Shown: positions 20,831 through 44,788 of the stretch, piece after piece
Layout: the number at the start of each line of letters is the position of its first letter
Position numbering within the stretch: the first letter of the stretch is position 1
IMG/VR virus record: IMGVR_UViG_3300032304_002326
Span: 1-64,000 of that record
Strand: one strand, 5' to 3'
Length of the DNA: 64,000 bases
Source: a virus
The notes under the pieces: model-generated
The model's database searches: none
Told to the model about the DNA's origin: nothing
Seen by the model: only the letters and a program-made list of their open reading frames with translations
Program-made: the position numbers and the translations under genes

Positions 20831-20881
20831 ATGGGTAACTGGATTAAAAAACAAATGGTGAAATTACTTAAAAAGTTATAA
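20831..20881 (+). pseudogene. Stranded original 5' end of the 21669..22679 gene
   Basis: MGNWIKKQMVKLLKKL*; tggattaaaaaacaaatg at 20840-20857 recurs exactly at 21675-21692. Confidence 0.75.
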
Positions 20882-20914
20882 CATTATTATATATTTATAA
20901 TAAAAAATAATAGT

Positions 20915-21682
20915 ATGATTGATAGTAAAGAAACTGGTGTTTATAAAATAACTAATTTAAATAATAATAAAGTTTATATTGGTAGTTCTACTTCTGAGCG
21001 AGATGGGTTTAAAGATAGAATAAATACCCACATTAGATTGTTAAATAATAAAAAACACCCAAATAAACATTTACAAAGTTCTTGGGATAAATATAGTTAT
21101 AAATCTTTTAAATTTGAAATTTTAGAAATAATTAAAGGTAAAGATAAAATAATTGAAAGAGAACAATATTATATTGACTTATATGGGGTGATTAACCCAA
21201 ATATTGGTTATAATAAAGCACCAATAGCAAATAGTCAGTTAGGTTTTAAACATTCAGAAGAAAGTAAACGTAAAATGTCTAAAGCTGCTAAAAGTAGGTC
21301 TAAAGAAATTTCAGAAAGAATGAAAAAAATAATGACTGGTAAAAAAATGAGTGATGAAACAAAGGAAAAAATATCAAAAAAAATAAAAGGAATTAAAAGA
21401 AATTATGAGTTTAAAAATAAAATGAGTATTATTGCTAAAAATAGGGTAGTTAGTGATGATACTAAAAATAAAATCAGTAAAACAAAAACGGGTAAAATAT
21501 CTAAAAAAAGGAAAAAAGTTATACAATTAGATTTGTATGGTAATTTAATTAAAATATGGTCTTTTGCTGGTGAAGCTGAAAGTGAATTAAATATAACTAG
21601 AGGTAAAATAAGTGCAGTTTGTTTAAATAATAGAAAAACAGCTGGTGGATTTAAATGGAAATATAAAAATGAAATGGATTAA
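20915..21682 (+). mobile_element. Free-standing GIY-YIG homing endonuclease with NUMOD3/NUMOD1 repeats
   Basis: GVYKITN...VYIGSS...R...H...EREQYYID...GYN; HSEESKRKMS repeats; terminal ISAVCLNNRKTAGGFKWKY. Confidence 0.9.
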
Positions 21683-26581: not shown

Positions 26582-26629
26582 ATGAATAATATAACAGTAA
26601 TTATACCAAGATTTTTAGTTAGTGAATAG
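26582..26629 (+). pseudogene. Stranded original 5' end of the GT2 gene 27519..28310
   Basis: MNNITVIIPRFLVSE*; gtaattatacca at 26597-26608 recurs at 27543-27554 (ISVIIP). Confidence 0.7.
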
Positions 26630-26667
26630 TTTTACATTAGATTTACCATATTTATAAATAAAAATTT

Positions 26668-27510
26668 ATGATAATATATAAAACAACAAATTTAATTAAT
26701 GGTAAAATTTATATAGGTAAAGATGTTAAAAATAACCCAAATTATTATGGTTCTGGTAAAATATTAAAACAAGCTATAAAAAAATATGGTAAAGAAAATT
26801 TTAAAAAAGAAATATTACTTGAGTGTTTTAATAAAAAAGAATTAGAATTGGAGGAAATTAAACACATAACCAAATATTCATCAAATAACCCTAAAATCGG
26901 ATATAATGTAACTAATGGTGGGTCTGGTGGTGTAACAAAAAGAATAAAAATATACCAGTATAATAAAAATGGTGAATTTATAAAAGAATGGGAGAGTAGT
27001 GAAGTTGCATCTAGAGAATTAAATATTGATTCAAGTGCTATTAGAAAAGTTTGTAAAGGTATTTTAAAAAGTTGTGGTGGATTTATTTGGTTAGAATATA
27101 AAAAAAATAATGTAATCTATAAAACAAATAAAGAAAAAAATATATTACAATATGATATGTGTGGTAATTTCATAAAAGAATGGGTATCAATTAAAGATGC
27201 TGAAAATTATTTAAAAATAAAACCATATAGTGGTAATATTGGTTCAGTTTTAGATAAACCAAATAGGTCATCACATGGTTATATTTGGTTAACAAAATGT
27301 GATAAAATAAAAAATAAAATAAAACAATATGAACATAACTTATCAAGAAAGGTGAACCAATTAAATGATACGCATGATATTATTAAAACCTGGGAATCAA
27401 TTACTGATATATGTAAAAATTTAAAAATAAAACAAAGTACATTAATAAAATACCTTAAATTAGATAAAAAATTAGGTGGTTATTATTGGGAATATAATAA
27501 TAAAAAATAA
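26668..27510 (+). mobile_element. Free-standing GIY-YIG (Seg-like) endonuclease with three NUMOD1-like repeats
   Basis: IIYKTTNLINGKIYIGK...YYGSG...GYN; three QYxxxGxFIKEWxS...GYxW-type repeats. Confidence 0.9.
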
Positions 27511-27518
27511 TAAATAAA

Positions 27519-28310
27519 ATGAAAAAAAGAAATTTAATAAGTGTAATTATACCATTACACGAAGTACAAGAAGGAACCAATGGATTATATAAAAATGCAA
27601 TTCAAAGTGTTATTGACCAAGTTGTAAAACCATCAAATGTGTTAGTTGTAACACCAATAGGTAGTGAAGCAACTAAATTTGCAAATGACTTTGATTATGG
27701 TACTATAAAAGATTTAGTTAAAGTGATTGAAAATGATGGTAAAACGGATTTTGCATCACAAATTAATTATGGTGTTTCAAAATGTGAAACAACGTGGTTT
27801 AGTATTTTAGAATTTGATGATGAATATTCTAAAATTTGGTTTAAAAATGTGGAAACATATATTGAAGCTTATTCAGATGTTGATATTTTTATGCCTATCA
27901 TAGTTGACGTTGATGAATTTGGTTCATTTATAGGGTTTACAAATGAAGCAGTTTGGGCCAATAGTTTTTCAGAAGAACTAGGTCTTTTAGATAAAGATGC
28001 ATTACTTTCTTACCAAAACTTTAATATCGATGGTATTGTAATGAAAAAAGATATCTATGAATCATACGGTGGGTTTAAATCAAACATGCAGTTAACATTT
28101 ATTTATGAATTCTTATTAAGAATGACATATAAATCTGCTAAAGTTATGACAATCCCTAAATTTGGTTATAAACACGTAAACCAAAGAGTTGGTTCATTAT
28201 TCCATAGTTATAAATTAAATATGAATCCAGTTGAAGCGAACTGGTGGTTAAATAAAGCTAAATCTGAGTTCTACCATGAGCATGACAGAGAATTGAGCTA
28301 TGCTGAATAA
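27519..28310 (+). CDS. GT2 glycosyltransferase
   Basis: ISVIIP, INYGV, LEFDD. Confidence 0.75.
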   Translation: MKKRNLISVIIPLHEVQEGTNGLYKNAIQSVIDQVVKPSNVLVVTPIGSEATKFANDFDYGTIKDLVKVIENDGKTDFASQINYGVSKCETTWFSILEFDDEYSKIWFKNVETYIEAYSDVDIFMPIIVDVDEFGSFIGFTNEAVWANSFSEELGLLDKDALLSYQNFNIDGIVMKKDIYESYGGFKSNMQLTFIYEFLLRMTYKSAKVMTIPKFGYKHVNQRVGSLFHSYKLNMNPVEANWWLNKAKSEFYHEHDRELSYAE

Positions 28311-34624: not shown

Positions 34625-37036
34625 TTATCTACTTACCTCTTCCCAATCTATTGAAGCATATGCTCCTAAATTTCCACCAGTTGCATCTACAGCCATTTCA
34701 ATTACTATTTCAAAAGCTGTCCCCGTAAAACTATTTCTTTCAAGTTGACTAGCAAATAATGCTTCTTTTAATATATTAATACTAGGAGAACCTTGATTAG
34801 ATGAATTTATATACCCTTGTGCTAATATTCTACCTCCTGAAACAGAAGCTCCCGTAAGATTATATTCAACAGATGAATCAACTCCAGCAGAAACCCACGC
34901 ACCTCCTGTGATAATAGCCCCATTTACAACTCTCCATGCATAGTTTTTACCATTACCTATCCCTAATAAAGATACTGCTGTAGTTATAATTATAGCATCT
35001 AATGCAGTAGCCTTAACCCTAATCCCCACCATTGGATAATACGTTCCAGCTACAGCAAATGTTTTAGGTGTTGTGATAGGTGTCCCAACCGCTAGTTGAG
35101 CACCCCTAAGTTCATAACCACCTTCAGATAATGCAGTAGAACACACTTGCTTTAAAGTACTTGGTATAGCTGTTACCCCTGTATTAGTAATCTCATACCT
35201 CAAAGGTAAAGATGCTGTGGTAATATAAGTAGATGTTATTAAATTAGCGTGATTAAATCTATGACAAAGAATAAAATTACCGTCTATAACAAAACCTAAT
35301 CTAACGGTCCCTTCTCCTAACCACTCAATATCCATAAATAATATCTGAGCTTTTGTAATATCTAATACTAAACCAGAAGGCCCAGTACCATCCATTTTAT
35401 CAACATTCCACGCCGATTGATTTACTACAGATTCAGTAACTACACCAGTAACCAAACTTCTTTCTACAAAACTTAAAGTAGAGTTGTTAAGTTGTAAGTA
35501 AAGCCCATTATCACTACCAAAGTAACCTACTCTTTGTCTAAGATTAGTTTGAGCTGGAGCCATTACAAATGTATTATATATTAGTAATGACTTACCTGGT
35601 TGGTATGATATTACTTTAAATGTTTCTCTAAGAACTTGTGAGCCACTTGTTGTATTTACATTTAAATTTACCAATCCTTCATTTGCACTAAATACTGCTG
35701 CACCCCCACTTGCTGTAGAAGTAGCCCATAACCCATTGTCTTTATATCTATGTGAAGAATCAAATAAAGTTAATGGATTTGAAACCCTTAATCTACCAAA
35801 TGCATCACCCAACATTGGATTATTAGTTAATATTGATTGATTAGATACAGTAACAGTACCATCTACAGTAATTGAATTACCACCATCTTGTATATTTACA
35901 GCAGCTGCACCAGCACCATTCTGAACTGTTATACTTTCTAATGCAGATAATGTTGCAGCATCTAATGCGACTGTACTATTAGTGACATCAACTTTATCCG
36001 TTGCAAATACTAAATTTCTAATATCTAAATCAGTAGCATCAACTGTGATTGAATTACCACCATCTTGAATATTAACAGCTGAAGCTCCAGAAGTATTTCC
36101 AATAGTTGCATTTAAATTAGACGCTGTAGGTTGAATAATTGTGAAATTACCAGTACCAGCATTTGCAGTAACAGTACCATCTACAGTAATTGAATTACCA
36201 CCATCTTGAATATTAACAGCTGATGAACCAGCACCATTCTGAACCGTTATATTTTCTAATGCAGTAAGTGTTGTAGCATCTAAAGCAATAGTACTATTGC
36301 TAACGTCAACCTTATCTGTTGCAAATACTAAATCTCTAATATCTAAATTATTAGCATCTACAGTTATACTATTACCACCATCTTGAATATTAACAGCTGA
36401 AGCACCAGCACCATTCTGAACCGTTATATTTTCTAATGCAGTAAGTGTTGCAGTACTTAAACTTACCGTACCATCCACAGTAATCGAACCACCAGCGTCA
36501 TCTATTGAAATAACATTACCACCATCTTGAATATTAACAGCGGAACCACCACCAGTATTATTAATCGTAACATCACCAATATCAGTACCATTAACTAATT
36601 TATTATTAATATTAGTTAATATTGTTTGAGTATTGGTTACAGCAGTTAGTACTAATTTTTGAGTATCTTCTAAATTTATATCAGTTGTATTTGAAACTAT
36701 TAAACTTAAAAAAGTATTTGGATTGATATATGATAACGGTGGTGTGGGTATTGATGGTGTGTTAGAATTTGGTAAATAATAAGTAGGTGGGTTAAATGCA
36801 CCAGTTGAACTATTCCATACTCTAACCTCTAAATAAGTAACATCTAAATTATCAACAACCAATTTAGTTTCATAATCACTTTGTTGCTGAACTGCTGACA
36901 ATATTGATAAAGAAGTTAACTCAGTTGCTAAATAAGCACCATTTGAATTTACCGAAATAATTTGGTCACTAGGTAAAACAACTGGGTCACTTTCAGCCAT
37001 CGTTTTTTGACCTTTTGTATTTGGAAATTGATTCAT
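34625..37036 (-). CDS. Repeat-rich virion-surface/fibre-like protein
   Basis: Five AVNIQDGGN(S)ITVD-type repeats, with ALENITVQNGAG and LDIRxLVFATDKVDV units; C-terminal DAFGRLRVSNPLTLFDS domain. Confidence 0.6.
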   Translation of the reverse strand: MNQFPNTKGQKTMAESDPVVLPSDQIISVNSNGAYLATELTSLSILSAVQQQSDYETKLVVDNLDVTYLEVRVWNSSTGAFNPPTYYLPNSNTPSIPTPPLSYINPNTFLSLIVSNTTDINLEDTQKLVLTAVTNTQTILTNINNKLVNGTDIGDVTINNTGGGSAVNIQDGGNVISIDDAGGSITVDGTVSLSTATLTALENITVQNGAGASAVNIQDGGNSITVDANNLDIRDLVFATDKVDVSNSTIALDATTLTALENITVQNGAGSSAVNIQDGGNSITVDGTVTANAGTGNFTIIQPTASNLNATIGNTSGASAVNIQDGGNSITVDATDLDIRNLVFATDKVDVTNSTVALDAATLSALESITVQNGAGAAAVNIQDGGNSITVDGTVTVSNQSILTNNPMLGDAFGRLRVSNPLTLFDSSHRYKDNGLWATSTASGGAAVFSANEGLVNLNVNTTSGSQVLRETFKVISYQPGKSLLIYNTFVMAPAQTNLRQRVGYFGSDNGLYLQLNNSTLSFVERSLVTGVVTESVVNQSAWNVDKMDGTGPSGLVLDITKAQILFMDIEWLGEGTVRLGFVIDGNFILCHRFNHANLITSTYITTASLPLRYEITNTGVTAIPSTLKQVCSTALSEGGYELRGAQLAVGTPITTPKTFAVAGTYYPMVGIRVKATALDAIIITTAVSLLGIGNGKNYAWRVVNGAIITGGAWVSAGVDSSVEYNLTGASVSGGRILAQGYINSSNQGSPSINILKEALFASQLERNSFTGTAFEIVIEMAVDATGGNLGAYASIDWEEVSR

Positions 37037-37252: not shown

Positions 37253-38065
37253 ATGAAAATTAGTTTAAACAATGAGGTTTCTACACCTCAAGCATTTATT
37301 GCTGTTAATAAAAGTAGAATTAAACAATATGATAAGTCTGGTGACACACCAACTTACTACCTACAAAAAGGTCAAGAATTCCAATTAGAATTATTTAATC
37401 CAACCAATGGAACCATTTTAGCTAAGATTTTCTTAAATGGAAATGCTATATCACAAGGTGGACTCGTTTTAAGACCAGGAGAGCGCATTTTTCTAGATAG
37501 ATATATCGATGTAGCCAAAAAGTTTTTATTCGACACCTACGAGGTTGAAAATACGTCTGAGGTTAAAAAAGCTATTGAAGACAATGGTGATTTTAAAGTT
37601 GAATTTTACAGAGAGTTCGTATTTAATAACTATGGTGGTTATTTAAACTTAAATAATAATACCACAGTAACCACATATAATACAAATTTAACTAATTATA
37701 GTGATGTAAATACATATGATATTAGATGTAATTCTTTAAATGATTTTAATTCATCATTTACAAACACATCAATTAATCAAAATACAACACCAGAAGGTCC
37801 AAACCGAAGACAATTAAAATCAAAAAAAACAAAATCAATTGAAACTGGTAGAGTTGAACAAGGTTCATCATCTAATCAAAAATTACAAACAGTAAATAAG
37901 AATTGGGAATACTCCCCATTTCATACTATTGAATATAAAATGTTACCATTATCACAAAAGATAAACACAATTGAAGATATTAATATAAAAAGATATTGCA
38001 CCAATTGTGGTTCCAAATTAAAAGTAGAGTTTAAATATTGTCCATTATGTGCAACTAAAATTTAA
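37253..38065 (+). CDS. Hypothetical protein with C-terminal double zinc ribbon (replaced C-terminus)
   Basis: Ends YCTNCGSKLKVEFKYCPLCATKI. Confidence 0.7.
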   Translation: MKISLNNEVSTPQAFIAVNKSRIKQYDKSGDTPTYYLQKGQEFQLELFNPTNGTILAKIFLNGNAISQGGLVLRPGERIFLDRYIDVAKKFLFDTYEVENTSEVKKAIEDNGDFKVEFYREFVFNNYGGYLNLNNNTTVTTYNTNLTNYSDVNTYDIRCNSLNDFNSSFTNTSINQNTTPEGPNRRQLKSKKTKSIETGRVEQGSSSNQKLQTVNKNWEYSPFHTIEYKMLPLSQKINTIEDINIKRYCTNCGSKLKVEFKYCPLCATKI

Positions 38066-39135
38066 TTTAAAAATTGGTTCCATGATTCCCAACCATTATA
38101 TTTATAAACATAATCTGGTCTTTTAGGAATATATGATGGTAGATTTTTAGTTAACGTTCTCCAAATAGATTCCGATTTAATATCACAATTTTTATTAACC
38201 CATTCCTTACTATCTTTATAAGATAAAAAATGGGTTATTTTTTTCTTCCCAATATATTTAATATTTTTTGGTAAATCATTACCAAAAAAATCATTATATG
38301 AAATCCATTCATTTTTATAAACATTAATTGGGTTTCTAGGTAAACCTAAATTTTTATTTTCTAAATACCAATTTGTGTATTCTGATTTAGTTGTTAATTT
38401 TAAATCTTTAATTATTAATTTAGCTTCAGAATAATTTATTAATTTAATTTTATTTTTTTTTATTATTAATTTTTTTTTATTAATTTTTGGTTTAGTATTT
38501 AAAAAAGAATACCAAGATTCCCAACCTTTACCTTTATAATATTGAGCTGGATTATATGGCATTTTATTTTTTCTAAAAATACGATATTCTTCTATATTTT
38601 TAATTTTCTCTTTAATAACTATTTCTTTTAATTCATTGTAACTTAAAAAACTATTATTATTAAAAAAATCAGTCCAGTTCTTCCAATCTCTATTTTTATA
38701 TACTGAATCTGGTCTTTTAGGAAAACATTCGGGTAATTCACCTAATTTTATCCATTTACGCCATTTTTTTTCTGAATTAATGTTAGGTATATTATTTAAC
38801 ACCCATTCTTTCATTTCTACTAATGTTGATTCATATTTAGAATAACTACTACCTTCACCACCTTTACTTAAATTAGTTAAATTAGGTATTTGCCCTATCC
38901 AATATTTTTCTCGTTCTACCCAATTATCTTCATTACATTCTTCTATAATATGTATTTTTAATTCTTCATTATTATTTAAAACTTTACGAATCCAATTATT
39001 CTTATGTGTTATTATACCTCGTTTAGCTTCACAAATGTGGTCATTTTTCCTAATTATTGGTCTATATGATTTACCAATATATCTTATTATATTATCATAC
39101 CCTGATAATCCATAAATATAAATTTTATCACTCAT
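38062..39135 (-). mobile_element. GIY-YIG endonuclease with PxxPxxxYKxxGWxSW repeats
   Basis: IYIYGL...IRYIGKS...R...H...EREKYWI...LTN; four repeats. Start taken at ATG 39135; TATTTAT at 39148-39154. Confidence 0.8.
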
Positions 39136-39192
39136 GATGTTTTTATTATAAATATACAAAAATTTATAAAAATCACATTTTAGATAAAACTT

Positions 39193-39252
39193 TGTGGTTC
39201 TAAATTAGGTAAGGGTGATAAATTTTGTGCTAACTGCGGCACAAAAGCTTAA
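39193..39252 (+). pseudogene. Stranded original 3' end of 37253..38065
   Basis: CGSKLGKGDKFCANCGTKA*, same length and Cys spacing as the in-gene CGSKLKVEFKYCPLCATKI* (38006-38065). Confidence 0.85.
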
Positions 39253-39277
39253 ATAAAAATAACTGAGTTAACTATAT

Positions 39278-39302
39278 AAGGGGAGTTTTTACTCCCTTTT
39301 TT
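39278..39302 (+). terminator. Intrinsic terminator
   Basis: aaggggagt-tttt-actccctt followed by a T run. Confidence 0.75.
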
Positions 39303-39377
39303 ATTTAAATAAGTTTTTTTATTAAAAAAAAATTGTTATTTTAAATATTATTTGTATATTTGTAAAAAAATAAAAAT

Positions 39378-39551
39378 ATGGAAAATACTAACATGTTATC
39401 TAGCAATAGTGCTATTGCTTCTGAAGTAATCAAATTGGAAAAGAAATATCCTAATAATATGGATTTAGGTTTTGCAATTAGAAAATTGTTACTTGAAAAT
39501 CGTGAAAAATACGATTTATTATTAAAAAGTATTGAAAACAAAAAAGGCTAG
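39378..39551 (+). CDS. Small hypothetical protein (57 aa)
   Basis: MENTNML...KYPNNMDLGFAIRKLL...KKG*; preceded by TATATTTG at 39355. Confidence 0.55.
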   Translation: MENTNMLSSNSAIASEVIKLEKKYPNNMDLGFAIRKLLLENREKYDLLLKSIENKKG

Positions 39552-39568
39552 ATAAACTCTAGCCTTTT
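39539..39568. terminator. Bidirectional terminator (capsid terminator, downstream copy)
   Basis: aaaaggctaga-taaac-tctagcctttt; near-identical copy at ~40464-40493. Confidence 0.8.
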
Positions 39569-39586
39569 ATATGAATTAGATTTTTA

Positions 39587-39655
39587 TTATCTTAATTCGT
39601 TAATGTTAAATGTTGGAACACCATCAACTTTTACGTGACCGTAGAATCTGTTGTT
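39587..39655 (-). pseudogene. Stranded copy of the last 22 codons of the major capsid gene
   Basis: NNRFYGHVKVDGVPTFNINELR*, protein-identical to 40512-40580 with 12 synonymous differences. Confidence 0.92.
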
Positions 39656-39666
39656 AAAACTTGCTT

Positions 39667-40440
39667 TTATAATAATTTATACATAAAAATATCATCTTCA
39701 TCATCTGTTGTTCTATATTTAGAAAAACCATACTTACTGTAAATTTGATAAAGTATATCTGAGTCTATTTCCGAATCATCATCAACCCTCAAAAATAATG
39801 ATTTATATCCTTTATTTTTGCCGAAATCATATAACCAATTCATAGTTTCTGTCATATAATTTTTACCTCTAAATTCTGGCAAAATTTTAATGTCAACAAT
39901 AGCTAAAGGATTTGGTAAATTAACATCAATCCAATAATATTCTTTCCTCGCTGGCGATAATATTATATAACCCACTTTTTCACCATTAACAATAATATCA
40001 TTATATTCATCAGTTGATGGGTTTTCTATATTTATTGATTCATTTAATGAATCAGAACCAGTTCCTTTATATATTAATTCAATTGAATTTGGTGGGATAT
40101 TTTCAAAAGTGATTATTCGTTTATCTTCTAAATCAAAATTAGGGTCAATATACCATTTGTTTTTAAGTTTGGTCGTATCTATTTTGTATATATCATCATC
40201 ATAGGTTGAATCCCACCAATCTTTTTTATTATCACTATTAACCGCAAATATGACTTTACCTTCAATAGGTGTATTAGATAACCAAGTTTCACTCTTTCCC
40301 TTTGGAATTAAACCTTCTTTTGATATGACATCCCTAAAATACGAATTTGATGTATGATACACATACTTATTTGGGATTATTTCTTTTAATTTACGATTAT
40401 TTAACGATTCTCTCAGTAACTTTTGTATTAATGTTTTCAT
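39667..40440 (-). CDS. Two-domain protein: Tpt1/KptA-like ADP-ribosyltransferase fold + GNAT acetyltransferase, with capsid-targeting-like leader
   Basis: MKTLIQKLLRE|S; YVYHTS...ISKEGLIP...ENIPPNSI; linker SLNE|S; IKILPEFRGKNY...YSKYGF. Confidence 0.65.
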   Translation of the reverse strand: MKTLIQKLLRESLNNRKLKEIIPNKYVYHTSNSYFRDVISKEGLIPKGKSETWLSNTPIEGKVIFAVNSDNKKDWWDSTYDDDIYKIDTTKLKNKWYIDPNFDLEDKRIITFENIPPNSIELIYKGTGSDSLNESINIENPSTDEYNDIIVNGEKVGYIILSPARKEYYWIDVNLPNPLAIVDIKILPEFRGKNYMTETMNWLYDFGKNKGYKSLFLRVDDDSEIDSDILYQIYSKYGFSKYRTTDDEDDIFMYKLL

Positions 40441-40463
40441 ACCTATAAATATCTATATAAAAC

Positions 40464-40493
40464 AAAAAAGGCTAGATTAACTTCTAGCCTTTT
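40464..40493 (-). terminator. Terminator of the major capsid gene (upstream copy)
   Basis: aaaaggctaga-ttaact-tctagcctttt. Confidence 0.8.
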
Positions 40494-40511
40494 ATATGAA
40501 TTAGATTTTTA

Positions 40512-42299
40512 TTATCTTAATTCGTTGATATTGAATGTAGGTACACCGTCCACTTTTACATGACCATAGAACCTATTATTCACAACTTTCTTCGCATATC
40601 TAGTCATGATACCTTTAACTGGTGCGAAGTTGAATGGATTGTACATTGTAGGTGTAAGTTGCATTGGCACGTATGGTGCGTAGATGTAACCTGTATCTAA
40701 CAATGATTTTCCTTTATGACCGATAATCGCTGAGTAGAAAGGTGCATATGGGTCACGGTACACTTGGTAACGTCCGCTTAATGAACCGATTCTTTCAATA
40801 CCCATGTTGTATTGGTCTTGCTCTGGGTTAGCATCACTTACGTGGAAGTATTCTAAATCATCCATGATTGCAGATATTTCAGAAGATACTACGATAAAGT
40901 TAGCACCACCTCTAAGAGTTGATTTGTGAATTTGAGCTGAAATTTGGTTAATTCTAGTAATGAAAGTTTGATTCCACTCTTTTTGTGTATATGGTGATGC
41001 AGCAGAAGAAGCTTTTCTCCATCCGTTGTAATCCCATCTTAATTGCCATGCAGCAGCTTTTCTTAAGTCTCTTAAGATTTCACGGTCAATTTCAGCAGCA
41101 ACTTGCTCAGAAAGCATTGCAGTTAATTCAGCTTCAGCATCGATGTTGTGGAATGCACTAACGTCTTGCGCTAACTCTGGAGACCATGTAGCTCTTAATT
41201 TTCTTTCTTCTACAGAAACAACAACTTCATCCAATTTGAATGATACTTCACCCATTTCAGTTTCTAACTCTAATGAATCGTAACGACCCCAAGCGATAAA
41301 GAAATCAGCAGCAGTTTCAGTTGTACCAGTAGTACCAATATAACCATCATAAGTTGATGTAGTACCAACTACTGGGTGTGTTAAATCCATTTCAACATAA
41401 AGAAAACCTTTAGCATCACAGATATCTTTATAATCTACGATACCTCTACCATATTTTTGAGTTACTAATCTAAAAGGAACTTGAGAACCTTGAGCGATAA
41501 TTACATTACCATCTGAGTCTAATAAATCTACGTTAGAAACAATGTTTAAAGATGCTAAGAAAGCTTCTGAATCCATTTCATTTCCGTCTGGACCTGTTAA
41601 TCTACCAGCATTAACTGAAGAGAAACCAGAGATAGCCATAATAGCGTTTCTTAAAGTTCCGTCAGTTGCTAATGGTAAAGCACCAAAGTTAGCAGCAACA
41701 GTAAATTGACCATTAGTACCTAATGTTTGTAAAGCACCAAAACCAGCAACGATATTTAATGTACCTTTAGAATTATCAAATAATCCGTCATTGTAGAAAA
41801 TATCATATAAGTTTTTACCTTCAAATGGAGTCATAACACAGTTACCTAATGTACTAACACATGATGGTAATTGGTCACCCATTGAAGTGTGTGCAGAATA
41901 TACAGAGTTTTCACTACCGTAAATATAATCGTTAGTTCCAGGATTTCCTAAACCGTCAACTCTAGATGATGTAACTGGTACGAAGAAGAACAATTTACCG
42001 ATTGGCATGTTCATAGCTTGTACAGATACTACATCATTAGCTAATAATTTAGAGAATACTCTTCTTACGATTGGGAAAACTACAGTTTCAAAAGAACCTG
42101 ATGACGTAGAGTCAGTAGCTTCTGTTAAAATTGAAGATGCTTGGTTTTCATATAACTGAGCAACGTTTTCTTTAACGTGGCCTTTAAGACCTTCTAAGAA
42201 TCCTAATGATTCCCATTTTGATTGGGTTTGTCTACGGATTTCCTTCATGTGGTTTAATCCGATGTTCCCAACTTGTCCTGAATTTAAAAATTGTGACAT
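40512..42299 (-). CDS. Major capsid protein (T4 gp23-like)
   Basis: PIVRRVF, VSVQAMNMPIG, RKLRATWSPELAQDVSAFHNIDAEAELTAMLSEQVAAEIDREI, GYIYAPYVP, GIMTRY. Confidence 0.95.
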   Translation of the reverse strand: MSQFLNSGQVGNIGLNHMKEIRRQTQSKWESLGFLEGLKGHVKENVAQLYENQASSILTEATDSTSSGSFETVVFPIVRRVFSKLLANDVVSVQAMNMPIGKLFFFVPVTSSRVDGLGNPGTNDYIYGSENSVYSAHTSMGDQLPSCVSTLGNCVMTPFEGKNLYDIFYNDGLFDNSKGTLNIVAGFGALQTLGTNGQFTVAANFGALPLATDGTLRNAIMAISGFSSVNAGRLTGPDGNEMDSEAFLASLNIVSNVDLLDSDGNVIIAQGSQVPFRLVTQKYGRGIVDYKDICDAKGFLYVEMDLTHPVVGTTSTYDGYIGTTGTTETAADFFIAWGRYDSLELETEMGEVSFKLDEVVVSVEERKLRATWSPELAQDVSAFHNIDAEAELTAMLSEQVAAEIDREILRDLRKAAAWQLRWDYNGWRKASSAASPYTQKEWNQTFITRINQISAQIHKSTLRGGANFIVVSSEISAIMDDLEYFHVSDANPEQDQYNMGIERIGSLSGRYQVYRDPYAPFYSAIIGHKGKSLLDTGYIYAPYVPMQLTPTMYNPFNFAPVKGIMTRYAKKVVNNRFYGHVKVDGVPTFNINELR

Positions 42300-44527: not shown

Positions 44528-44788
44528 TCAATTAATTTTTACCCATTTATAATTATAGTATGTCCTATTTTCTTTGTTACAAACATTAGATATACTACTT
44601 TGTTTTATTTTTAAAGTATTACTGTATTTAGATTTTCTAATATGTTCTTTAAACCTTACATCAATATTATTTGATTTACCAATATATCTAACTAAATTGG
44701 TTAATGGGTCAACTAACATATAAATGTAAACTACATTTAATTTATTTTCCACACTTTGACCAGCCTTTAATATTTTAATATCTGACAT
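44528..44788 (-). pseudogene. Internally deleted GIY-YIG endonuclease fused to the probable original protease N-terminus
   Basis: MSDIKILKAGQS (cf. protease MSDYKINK), then VYIYMLVDP...RYIGKS...RFKEH joined directly to a NUMOD1 end (ISNVCNKENRTYYNYKW); the catalytic Glu region is missing. Confidence 0.7.

Follow-up and report, generated by a model that had tools for sequence, protein, structure and literature searches.

The minus strand of IMG/VR record IMGVR_UViG_3300032304_002326 carries a major capsid protein gene whose 3′ end is present twice. The record is a 78.6-kb metagenome contig with an estimated completeness of 23%, and its positions 1 to 64,000 (64,000 nucleotides) form the window analyzed here. 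The capsid gene belongs to the T4 Gp23 family, matches profile PF07068 above the cut-off (E = 4.5e-71, 240.7 bits), and is preceded by an acidic scaffold-like gene. Its last 22 codons, the double stop codon, the 3′ untranslated region (UTR) and the terminator recur downstream, and between the two copies lies a gene for a protein with an ADP-ribosyltransferase (ART) lobe and a GNAT domain (the cargo gene). We refer to the copy that ends the capsid gene as the in-use copy and to the other as the stranded copy.

The Gp23-type capsid protein, a complete relative of 345 kb, and capsid identities of no more than 42% to the nearest cultured phages together indicate that the source of the window is an uncultured giant T4-like phage. 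Its signal is found mainly in freshwater and lake metagenomes (20 sequencing runs matched, the best containing 77% of the sampled words). For comparison, we used 78 relatives, consisting of 76 capsid loci and two close loci with an empty site, L088 and L089. The former was found with the shared UTR as the query and the latter with sequence just upstream of the recoded patch described below. They come from two other metagenomes, and their capsid DNA is ∼95% identical to that of the window.

Structure of the duplicated capsid gene end

The initial annotation of this DNA had reported the duplication, and alignment together with a repeat search confirms it on the minus strand. Both copies code for NNRFYGHVKVDGVPTFNINELR followed by TAATAA, and their 22 codons specify the same amino acids (NNRFY...NELR). 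The match between the copies is well above chance (z ∼20 against shuffled queries; nhmmer E = 3e-16), and the repeat search found no third copy in the 78.6-kb record. As had also been described, 12 of the first 18 codons differ and every change is silent; the third base of the preceding Val codon differs as well. Beyond codon 18 and through the terminator (∼75 nt), the copies are almost identical, with one 1-nt indel and one mismatch, and the longest exact run that they share is 43 nt. Both hairpins are predicted to be intrinsic terminators.

The stranded copy probably includes 11 nt upstream of the 22-codon tail. This extension, which directly follows the stop codon of the cargo gene, reads as decayed KKVV codons carrying one substitution and one deleted base. 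In its present position, the stranded copy would terminate both the cargo transcript and the small gene that converges on it.

The stranded copy is the native end

L088 and L089 are empty, native-type alleles. Each has a single tail, which shares 51 of 54 positions with the stranded copy and 43–45 of 54 with the in-use copy, and past the terminator each runs directly into an antisense 57-aa gene, the one found after the stranded copy in the window. Because the empty sites combine a stranded-type tail with the same small gene, we conclude from this comparison that the stranded copy is the native capsid end, and that the cargo gene and the re-spelled end are an insertion. The suggestion in the initial annotation that the in-use end is derived or imported is thus supported. 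We also considered whether L088 and L089 could be deletion products of the window type. This was rejected, since recombination in the shared 75 nt would retain the recoded patch and both loci lack it.

Codon usage agrees with the earlier claim that the stranded copy fits the capsid gene better. Scored against the codons used in the capsid body, the stranded copy is 10.35 nats ahead of the in-use copy. The counts in the body are 0 AGG versus 18 AGA, 2 GTG versus 22 GTT, and 1 CAT versus 7 CAC, and the in-use patch falls within the lowest 0.5% of all 18-codon windows of the gene.

At the native breakpoint, L088 and L089 have a perfect 12-nt palindrome, GTTGTTAACAAC, which contains GTTAAC and is destroyed in both copies of the window (40575–40586 and 39650–39660). 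A host restriction site does not explain the palindrome, as the genome contains GTTAAC about as often as expected (22 occurrences versus 21.8). We regard it as only a hint.

The in-use end is silently recoded

The silent changes are concentrated in a 55-nt patch. Relative to L088, 12 of these 55 nt differ, all of them silently, against a background of 3.7%. The capsid gene contains two further dense patches of difference from L088, which change amino acids and lie in variable loops. The L088 capsid frame is also interrupted by an in-frame TAA (..PQT-stop-SRVD..) ∼330 nt after its start, within a cluster of differences; this could be a genuine defect or an assembly error.

The in-use spelling was not found in any of the 78 relatives (best match 45/54), and an exact search of viral_contigs with the first 23 nt of the patch gave no match. 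Among these relatives, all 69 tails that differ from the native tail by at least 10 nt also have at least two amino acid changes. The maximum number of silent codon changes in any relative is 11, compared with 12 silent changes and no amino acid change in the in-use copy. When judged against family codon frequencies, a change in at least 12 of 18 codons has P = 0.011. The patch starts within 0–12 nt of the position at which the stranded copy starts. We examined whether the tail might be conserved as a nucleotide element. Its silent-site conservation across the family is ordinary (0.53 versus a gene mean of 0.58), and therefore no hidden nucleotide element is needed.

The cargo gene and its leader

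The earlier assignment of the cargo as an ART joined to a GNAT domain is supported by its fold, firmly for GNAT and as a putative assignment for ART. The GNAT domain scores 30.2 bits with PF00583 (cut-off 20.7) and has E = 1e-5 in Foldseek, and structural comparison with VIA gives Z = 11.7 and a root-mean-square deviation (rmsd) of 3.1 over 118 aligned residues. The N-terminal domain aligns with the ADP-ribosyltransferase lobe of the Tpt1/KptA-type enzyme 9ld3_A (Z = 10.6, rmsd 2.3, 88 aligned residues, 24% identity), of which it has only this C-terminal lobe, and gives a weak PHROG match to RNA 2′-phosphotransferase (E = 2e-4). The cargo gene is the only open reading frame between the tail copies, and neither Pfam nor fold comparison revealed a nuclease fold in its product.

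The same ART-GNAT fusion occurs in more than 170 metagenome proteins at 55–81% identity. No homolog of the cargo was found in five long related records or in 50,697 phage records, and in viral_contigs the homologs are stand-alone N-terminal domains, none of them adjoining a capsid gene. In L083 (2820–6992) and L085 (4600–6280), such stand-alone homologs sit in arrays of small genes that share near-identical leaders (e.g. MTQFKKYDEFLNES, MKYIKLFEQFINES). The promoter-like TATTTAT motif upstream of the cargo start recurs in the same layout behind the capsid terminator of many relatives. Occurrences of TATTTAT followed by ATG are too sparse in the window for a promoter class to be called.

The first residues of the cargo protein resemble those of unrelated genes that occupy the same slot behind the capsid gene in relatives, which begin, for example, with MKTLIKKLLRE (L022, L023), MKKLIKKLIRE, or MKKIIKKLLRE. 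A common (I/L)-K-K-L-L-R-E leader can be recognized at 40402–40440 of the window and in the slot genes of L016, L019, L022, L023, L032, L046, and L060. In phage T4, a capsid targeting sequence of 10 residues is cleaved by the prohead protease; Alt is a packaged and injected ADP-ribosyltransferase; and the internal-protein and Alt genes show little conservation and can be exchanged between T4-like phages (PMC9026906). The short amphipathic leader of the cargo ends in L-R-E (L-x-E) and resembles the T4 targeting sequence, although the cargo has no detectable sequence homology to Alt or to the internal proteins. By analogy, the cargo protein may be packaged in the capsid by means of its leader. 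This comparison bears on the identity of the payload and not on the route by which it arrived.

GIY-YIG cassettes in the same genome

A second gene end has been replaced nearby. In relatives, the zinc-ribbon gene that converges on the capsid gene encodes the C terminus ..CGAKLGKGHKFC..CGTKA, and a conserved UTR and terminator come next. In the window, the in-use 14-residue tail of this gene is different, with the Cys pairs kept. The native end lies stranded further along, and between the two ends (region 38006–39306) is an insert with a GIY-YIG endonuclease gene, flanked by a junction repeat of 15–16 nt (TGTGGTTCYAAATTA). L088 and L089 lack the GIY-YIG gene, and their zinc-ribbon genes read straight into the native end. 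Judged from these alignments, the arrival of the GIY-YIG cassette gave the zinc-ribbon gene a new end, just as happened to the capsid gene. The GIY-YIG gene lies outside the capsid-tail repeat, ∼400 nt beyond the stranded copy. Its match to PF01541 (E = 0.0013, 19.4 bits) is below the 22.6 cut-off; this profile is matched by 11 of 17 full-length homologs, and residues Y8, Y19, R29, H33, E76, and N88 are invariant.

Two further GIY-YIG cassettes, with genes at 20936 and 26668, each have a stranded native N terminus, a junction repeat of 12–17 nt, and a more diverged in-use flank. Identity to L089 shifts from ∼98% to 85–90% across each of these insertions. The coordinates of all features are collected in Table 1.

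Table 1. Features of the duplicated capsid gene end and its surroundings, numbered by position in the window
Feature	Position	Strand	Basis
Major capsid protein gene, T4 Gp23 family, 595 aa; last 22 codons are the in-use tail	40512..42299	−	PF07068 and PHROG major head protein
Recoded patch of the in-use tail, 55 nt, 12–13 silent changes relative to native type	40527..40581	−	Comparison with L088, L089, and stranded copy
In-use copy: KKVV codons, 22-codon tail, TAATAA, UTR, terminator (hairpin 40466–40493)	40459..40592	−	Alignment/repeat search, terminator call
Promoter-like TATTTAT motif just 5′ of the cargo start	40441..40458	−	Sequence; putative function
Cargo gene, 257 aa: leader MKTLIQKLLRE, Tpt1/KptA-like ADP-ribosyltransferase lobe (17–124), GNAT (132–257)	39667..40440	−	Pfam, fold
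Stranded native copy: decayed KKVV (11 nt), 22-codon tail, TAATAA, UTR, terminator (hairpin 39542–39568)	39535..39666	−	Alignment, terminator call
Small 57-aa gene convergent with the capsid gene, native downstream neighbor, ending inside the shared hairpin	39378..39551	+	Identical protein in L089, same place
Stranded native zinc-ribbon 3′ end (..CGSKLGKGDKFCANCGTKA-stop), UTR and terminator (39278–39299)	39189..39306	+	Matches L089 and 17 relatives
GIY-YIG endonuclease gene, free-standing, 357 aa, repeated C-terminal DNA-binding modules	38062..39135	−	PF01541 sub-threshold and homologs
Conserved zinc-ribbon gene, convergent with the capsid gene; last 14 codons (38021–38065) are a diverged replacement	37253..38065	+	Comparison with relatives
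Further GIY-YIG genes	20936 (block 20856–21651); 26668 (block 26608–27537)		Absent from L089
GIY-YIG remnant	44606 (44573–44731)		In a stretch with no counterpart in L088

Two other differences from the close relatives were observed in this region. L089 encodes at 563–1204 a secreted-looking DNA/RNA non-specific endonuclease of 213 aa (PF01223, E = 1.3e-26), and L088 is collinear. The gene sits between the small gene and the zinc-ribbon terminator in both relatives and is missing from the window (39297–39306). Farther away, the window has at 34683–36799 a gene for an 803-aa, repeat-rich (AVNIQDGGNSITVD), fibre-like protein, which in L089 (2419–2575) is down to a 50-aa open reading frame that fuses N- and C-terminal pieces. 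A deletion or insertion of ∼2.1 kb in this gene thus separates the window from its close relative.

Genes behind the capsid gene in relatives

The region downstream of the capsid gene was surveyed in the 74 relative loci with at least 400 nt of sequence beyond it. All 74 keep the order of tail, UTR, and terminator. A gene on the same strand starts no more than 260 nt downstream in 59 loci, and these genes belong to 19 families; the interval between the capsid and zinc-ribbon genes ranges from 1.4 to 4.1 kb. The initial annotation had proposed that the capsid end is a landing site for exchangeable cargo and had raised the question of whether the breakpoint at VV/NNRFY recurs. The exchangeable part of this claim stands, in the form of a hypervariable slot behind the terminator. 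The breakpoint does not recur, as a second tail is found in 0 of the 76 relatives and in neither L088 nor L089. NNRFY-like strings after the terminator in L029, L018, and L007 were considered as old remnants and rejected, because they overlap promoter-like TTGAC motifs and are not significant.

The largest group of slot genes, found directly behind the capsid gene in 22 of the 74 loci, is of the homing endonuclease type. Its members share an N-terminal helix-turn-helix (HTH) domain, and the nuclease modules linked to it fall into three kinds. The first kind comprises proteins of ∼226–230 aa that have an H-x-D-H..N-L-Q-P-L-W..N motif and match PHROG endonuclease VII with E values of 1e-12 to 1e-14. 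The second kind, of 530–571 aa, has a Ros/MucR zinc finger, a sub-threshold match to REase_MTES_1575, and a GNAT domain; L008, the one protein of this kind scanned against PHROGs, matches homing endonuclease with E = 1.6e-83. A single protein represents the third kind, with a GIY-YIG domain above the Pfam cut-off and a GNAT domain. A PHROG homing endonuclease match with E = 4.3e-56 also occurs in the group.

The short forms with the endonuclease VII/HNH-like motif are those of L007, L018, L020, L029, L035, L042, L044, L063, L076, L078, and L079. Long forms are found in L008, L014, L033, L036, and L051, and several of them fuse a REase-like or GIY-YIG module to GNAT, an unusual combination of nuclease and acetyltransferase. 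Pfam and PDB sequence searches with the HTH-nucleases were silent and fold searches matched the N-terminal HTH alone, so that the nuclease call rests on the PHROG matches and the H-x-D-H..N-L-Q-P-L-W..N motif. A search of the 78.6-kb record, with its 23% completeness, gave no homolog of these proteins.

The spelling of the tail is associated with the type of slot gene. The similarity of the tail to the native spelling, minus that of the capsid body, is −0.062 at loci with a nuclease gene and +0.044 at the others (Mann–Whitney p = 3e-5, uncorrected for phylogeny).

Origin of the duplicated end

We favor the explanation that the duplicated capsid end is the footprint of homing-type, one-sided repair of a double-strand break triggered by a nuclease, and we judge it about as likely as not. 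A phage genome with the native tail would have been cut at or beside the ..KKVV/NNRFY.. codons. The capsid-side end would then have invaded the genome of a co-infecting relative whose tail was re-spelled and uncut, and in which an ART-GNAT gene occupied the slot behind the capsid terminator. Synthesis would have copied the re-spelled tail, UTR, terminator, promoter, and cargo gene, after which the new strand would have been joined without homology to the other broken end. That end would have retained the native tail, which would thereby have become stranded. The product would be a terminus-replacing cassette in which a resistant replacement end and the displaced native end, the latter serving as the right homology arm, enclose a payload.

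Copying could have halted before any nuclease gene of the donor, so the payload need not be a nuclease. Because the payload includes no nuclease, such a cassette could not make its own cuts. Its spread, always as a passenger, would depend on cleavage of a naive co-infecting genome by a nuclease acting in trans, much as MobE mobilizes the defunct I-TevIII in trans (PMC2790892). Candidates for such a nuclease are the GIY-YIG gene ∼400 nt away and the HTH-nuclease genes that lie behind the capsid gene in relatives. The whole 38.0–40.6 kb block, with its two replaced gene ends and one GIY-YIG gene, could move as a single island. The cut, its position, the donor, and mobilization in trans are all features that we infer. 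This repair model explains the native stranded copy and the match in layout with the GIY-YIG cassettes of the same genome, and in it the near-coincident starts of the patch and of the stranded copy would both be set by one break. Also in its favor are the extreme and purely silent patch, the further GIY-YIG cassettes, the HTH-nuclease genes at 22 of 74 loci with their less native-like tails, and the published parallels discussed below.

The initial annotation had also suggested that the recoding confers immunity to a nuclease. Given the replaced gene end at the nearby GIY-YIG gene, the further GIY-YIG cassettes, and the nuclease genes in the 22 surveyed loci, it is plausible that the re-spelled tail provides such immunity.

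Several observations weigh against break repair as the origin. No nuclease gene lies between the two tail copies, and cleavage is deduced from the arrangement. A second tail is absent from all 78 relatives, which makes the event so far unique to this contig, itself a metagenome assembly, and our searches did not find a donor-type allele with the recoded tail and no duplication. The two UTR-terminators in the window resemble one another more than they do those of L088 or L089, which calls for a very close donor or for later homogenization as an extra assumption. The stranded native tail persists, and a nuclease that recognized nothing but the 22 codons would go on cutting it, so the site would have to reach into the KKVV codons; these are changed in both copies. 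Finally, the association between tail spelling and nuclease genes is modest and not independent of phylogeny.

An origin that requires no nuclease is shuffling of cassettes, in which the module of tail, UTR, terminator, promoter, and leader serves as the left homology, the right join is illegitimate, and a short tract of gene conversion with an unsampled relative as the donor accounts for the patch. In T4-type phages, PeSL-type modular shuffling is known, in which the same promoter/stem-loop repeat flanks many genes. The hypervariable slot with its unrelated families, the variable distance to the zinc-ribbon gene, the cargo-type leader that several unrelated slot genes have in common, and the other mosaic patches that separate the capsid gene from that of L088 are all in keeping with such exchange. 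Shuffling leaves unexplained the shared starting point of the patch and the stranded copy, the purely silent nature of a patch that is further from the native spelling than any sampled relative, and the same end-replacing layout of the adjoining GIY-YIG cassette. The dispersed layout of a PeSL-type repeat was also not found, because the repeat occurs just twice in the 78.6-kb record, unlike dispersed regulatory repeats, and includes coding sequence. We therefore consider this origin unlikely, but still one to be taken seriously.

Local duplication could instead have come first, with silent changes then selected because they shorten the direct repeat and shield the cargo from deletion. The near-identical repeat has indeed been cut from ∼130 to ∼75 nt, and the two terminators are sister sequences. 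However, 12 clustered silent changes cannot accrue stepwise while the rest of the gene stays ∼96% identical to relatives, the in-use copy gained poorly adapted codons in a highly expressed gene, and the remaining 75 nt would still permit deletion. The earlier proposal that the recoding suppresses deletion is accordingly weak, given that ∼75 nt of near identity with a 43-nt exact run remain, and we judge this order of events improbable. Selection against deletion may help to maintain the patch, but it cannot create it. An assembly artifact, in which two co-occurring strains were threaded through a shared repeat, is less probable still. Its attraction lies in the incomplete metagenome contig, in the natural strain variants represented by L088 and L089, and in a search of viral_contigs for the junction of cargo and native tail, which returned no second contig. 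Yet strain switching inside the repeat cannot make the observed junction, where a truncated native tail without capsid body begins no more than 11 nt after the cargo stop codon. Exact repeat runs of at most 43 nt and differing terminators are moreover resolved by assemblers that use larger k, and the cargo protein is on record on two contigs, which are possibly not independent.

Significance and comparison with known systems

If repair of a nuclease cut is indeed the origin, then essential phage genes are docking sites for elements that bring their own re-spelled gene end, and the part that provides both immunity and a homology arm is separable from the nuclease and able to carry useful cargo. 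We advance only tentatively the broader idea that terminus-replacing cassettes of phages can carry non-nuclease payloads and are driven by nucleases encoded elsewhere, with the re-spelled end as the immunity determinant and left arm. If true, it would provide a gene-drive-like route by which genes for host takeover or anti-defense (packaged, injected effectors) spread among giant T4-like phages. The repair origin, if correct, would also connect homing endonucleases with two subjects usually kept apart from them, namely mosaic patches in core genes and the rapid turnover in T4-like phages of genes for capsid-packaged effectors. In practice, a stranded native end beside a silently recoded in-use end could serve as a marker for the likely cut site of an unknown nuclease.

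No phage with a capsid end that is duplicated and recoded was described in the literature searched. Free-standing homing endonuclease genes of T4-like phages are well described; segD, for example, is located between genes 23 and 24 (PMC2988022). The GIY-YIG gene just past the capsid gene of the window, which is present or absent in close relatives, resembles segD, SegG, SegF, and MobE in this respect, and in those systems gene conversion can carry neighboring DNA without a working nuclease. Classical intronless homing differs in that the insertions lie between genes and duplicate no gene end. In ICP1-like and other phages, homing endonuclease gene (HEG) islands comprise nuclease genes that cluster by essential genes, including the capsid gene, and that move cargo (Barth et al. 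2023; PMC10448857). The 38.0–40.6 kb block is comparable in that a replaced gene end lies on each side of it and that one nuclease gene and cargo are found inside. In HEG islands, however, the cargo is flanked by at least two HEGs, and duplicated, recoded gene termini are absent.

The duplicated-end layout itself is already documented for yeast WHO elements and for fungal mitochondria. Insertion of a WHO element replaces the 3′ end of FBA1, an essential and conserved aldolase gene, with a cleavage-resistant version, and the old end stays as a homology arm; occupied alleles and sensitive empty ones occur side by side (Coughlan et al. 2020; PMC7282813). In mitochondrial mORF hybrids (atp6 of Allomyces macrogynus; atp6, atp9, cox2, and nad3 of Glomus), a foreign C terminus is in frame with the gene core, and the native C terminus lies downstream and is nearly identical to that of sister species (PMC3630166). 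As in both systems, the capsid gene of the window has a non-native 3′ end, a native fragment kept downstream, and empty alleles in relatives. As in the mORF hybrids, its inserted copy is far more diverged in DNA than in protein. The differences lie mainly in what the ends enclose. WHO elements have their own nuclease gene between the ends and mORFs encode LAGLIDADG or GIY-YIG enzymes, whereas the window has a non-nuclease ART-GNAT gene there, any nuclease would act in trans, and each copy of the tail has its own UTR and terminator. In addition, the replacement in the window comprises only 22–26 codons, leaves the protein unchanged, and is found in a phage rather than in a yeast chromosome. Because no nuclease gene lies between its ends, the capsid cassette is not a member of the WHO/mORF family, although it would be similar to these elements in how it works.

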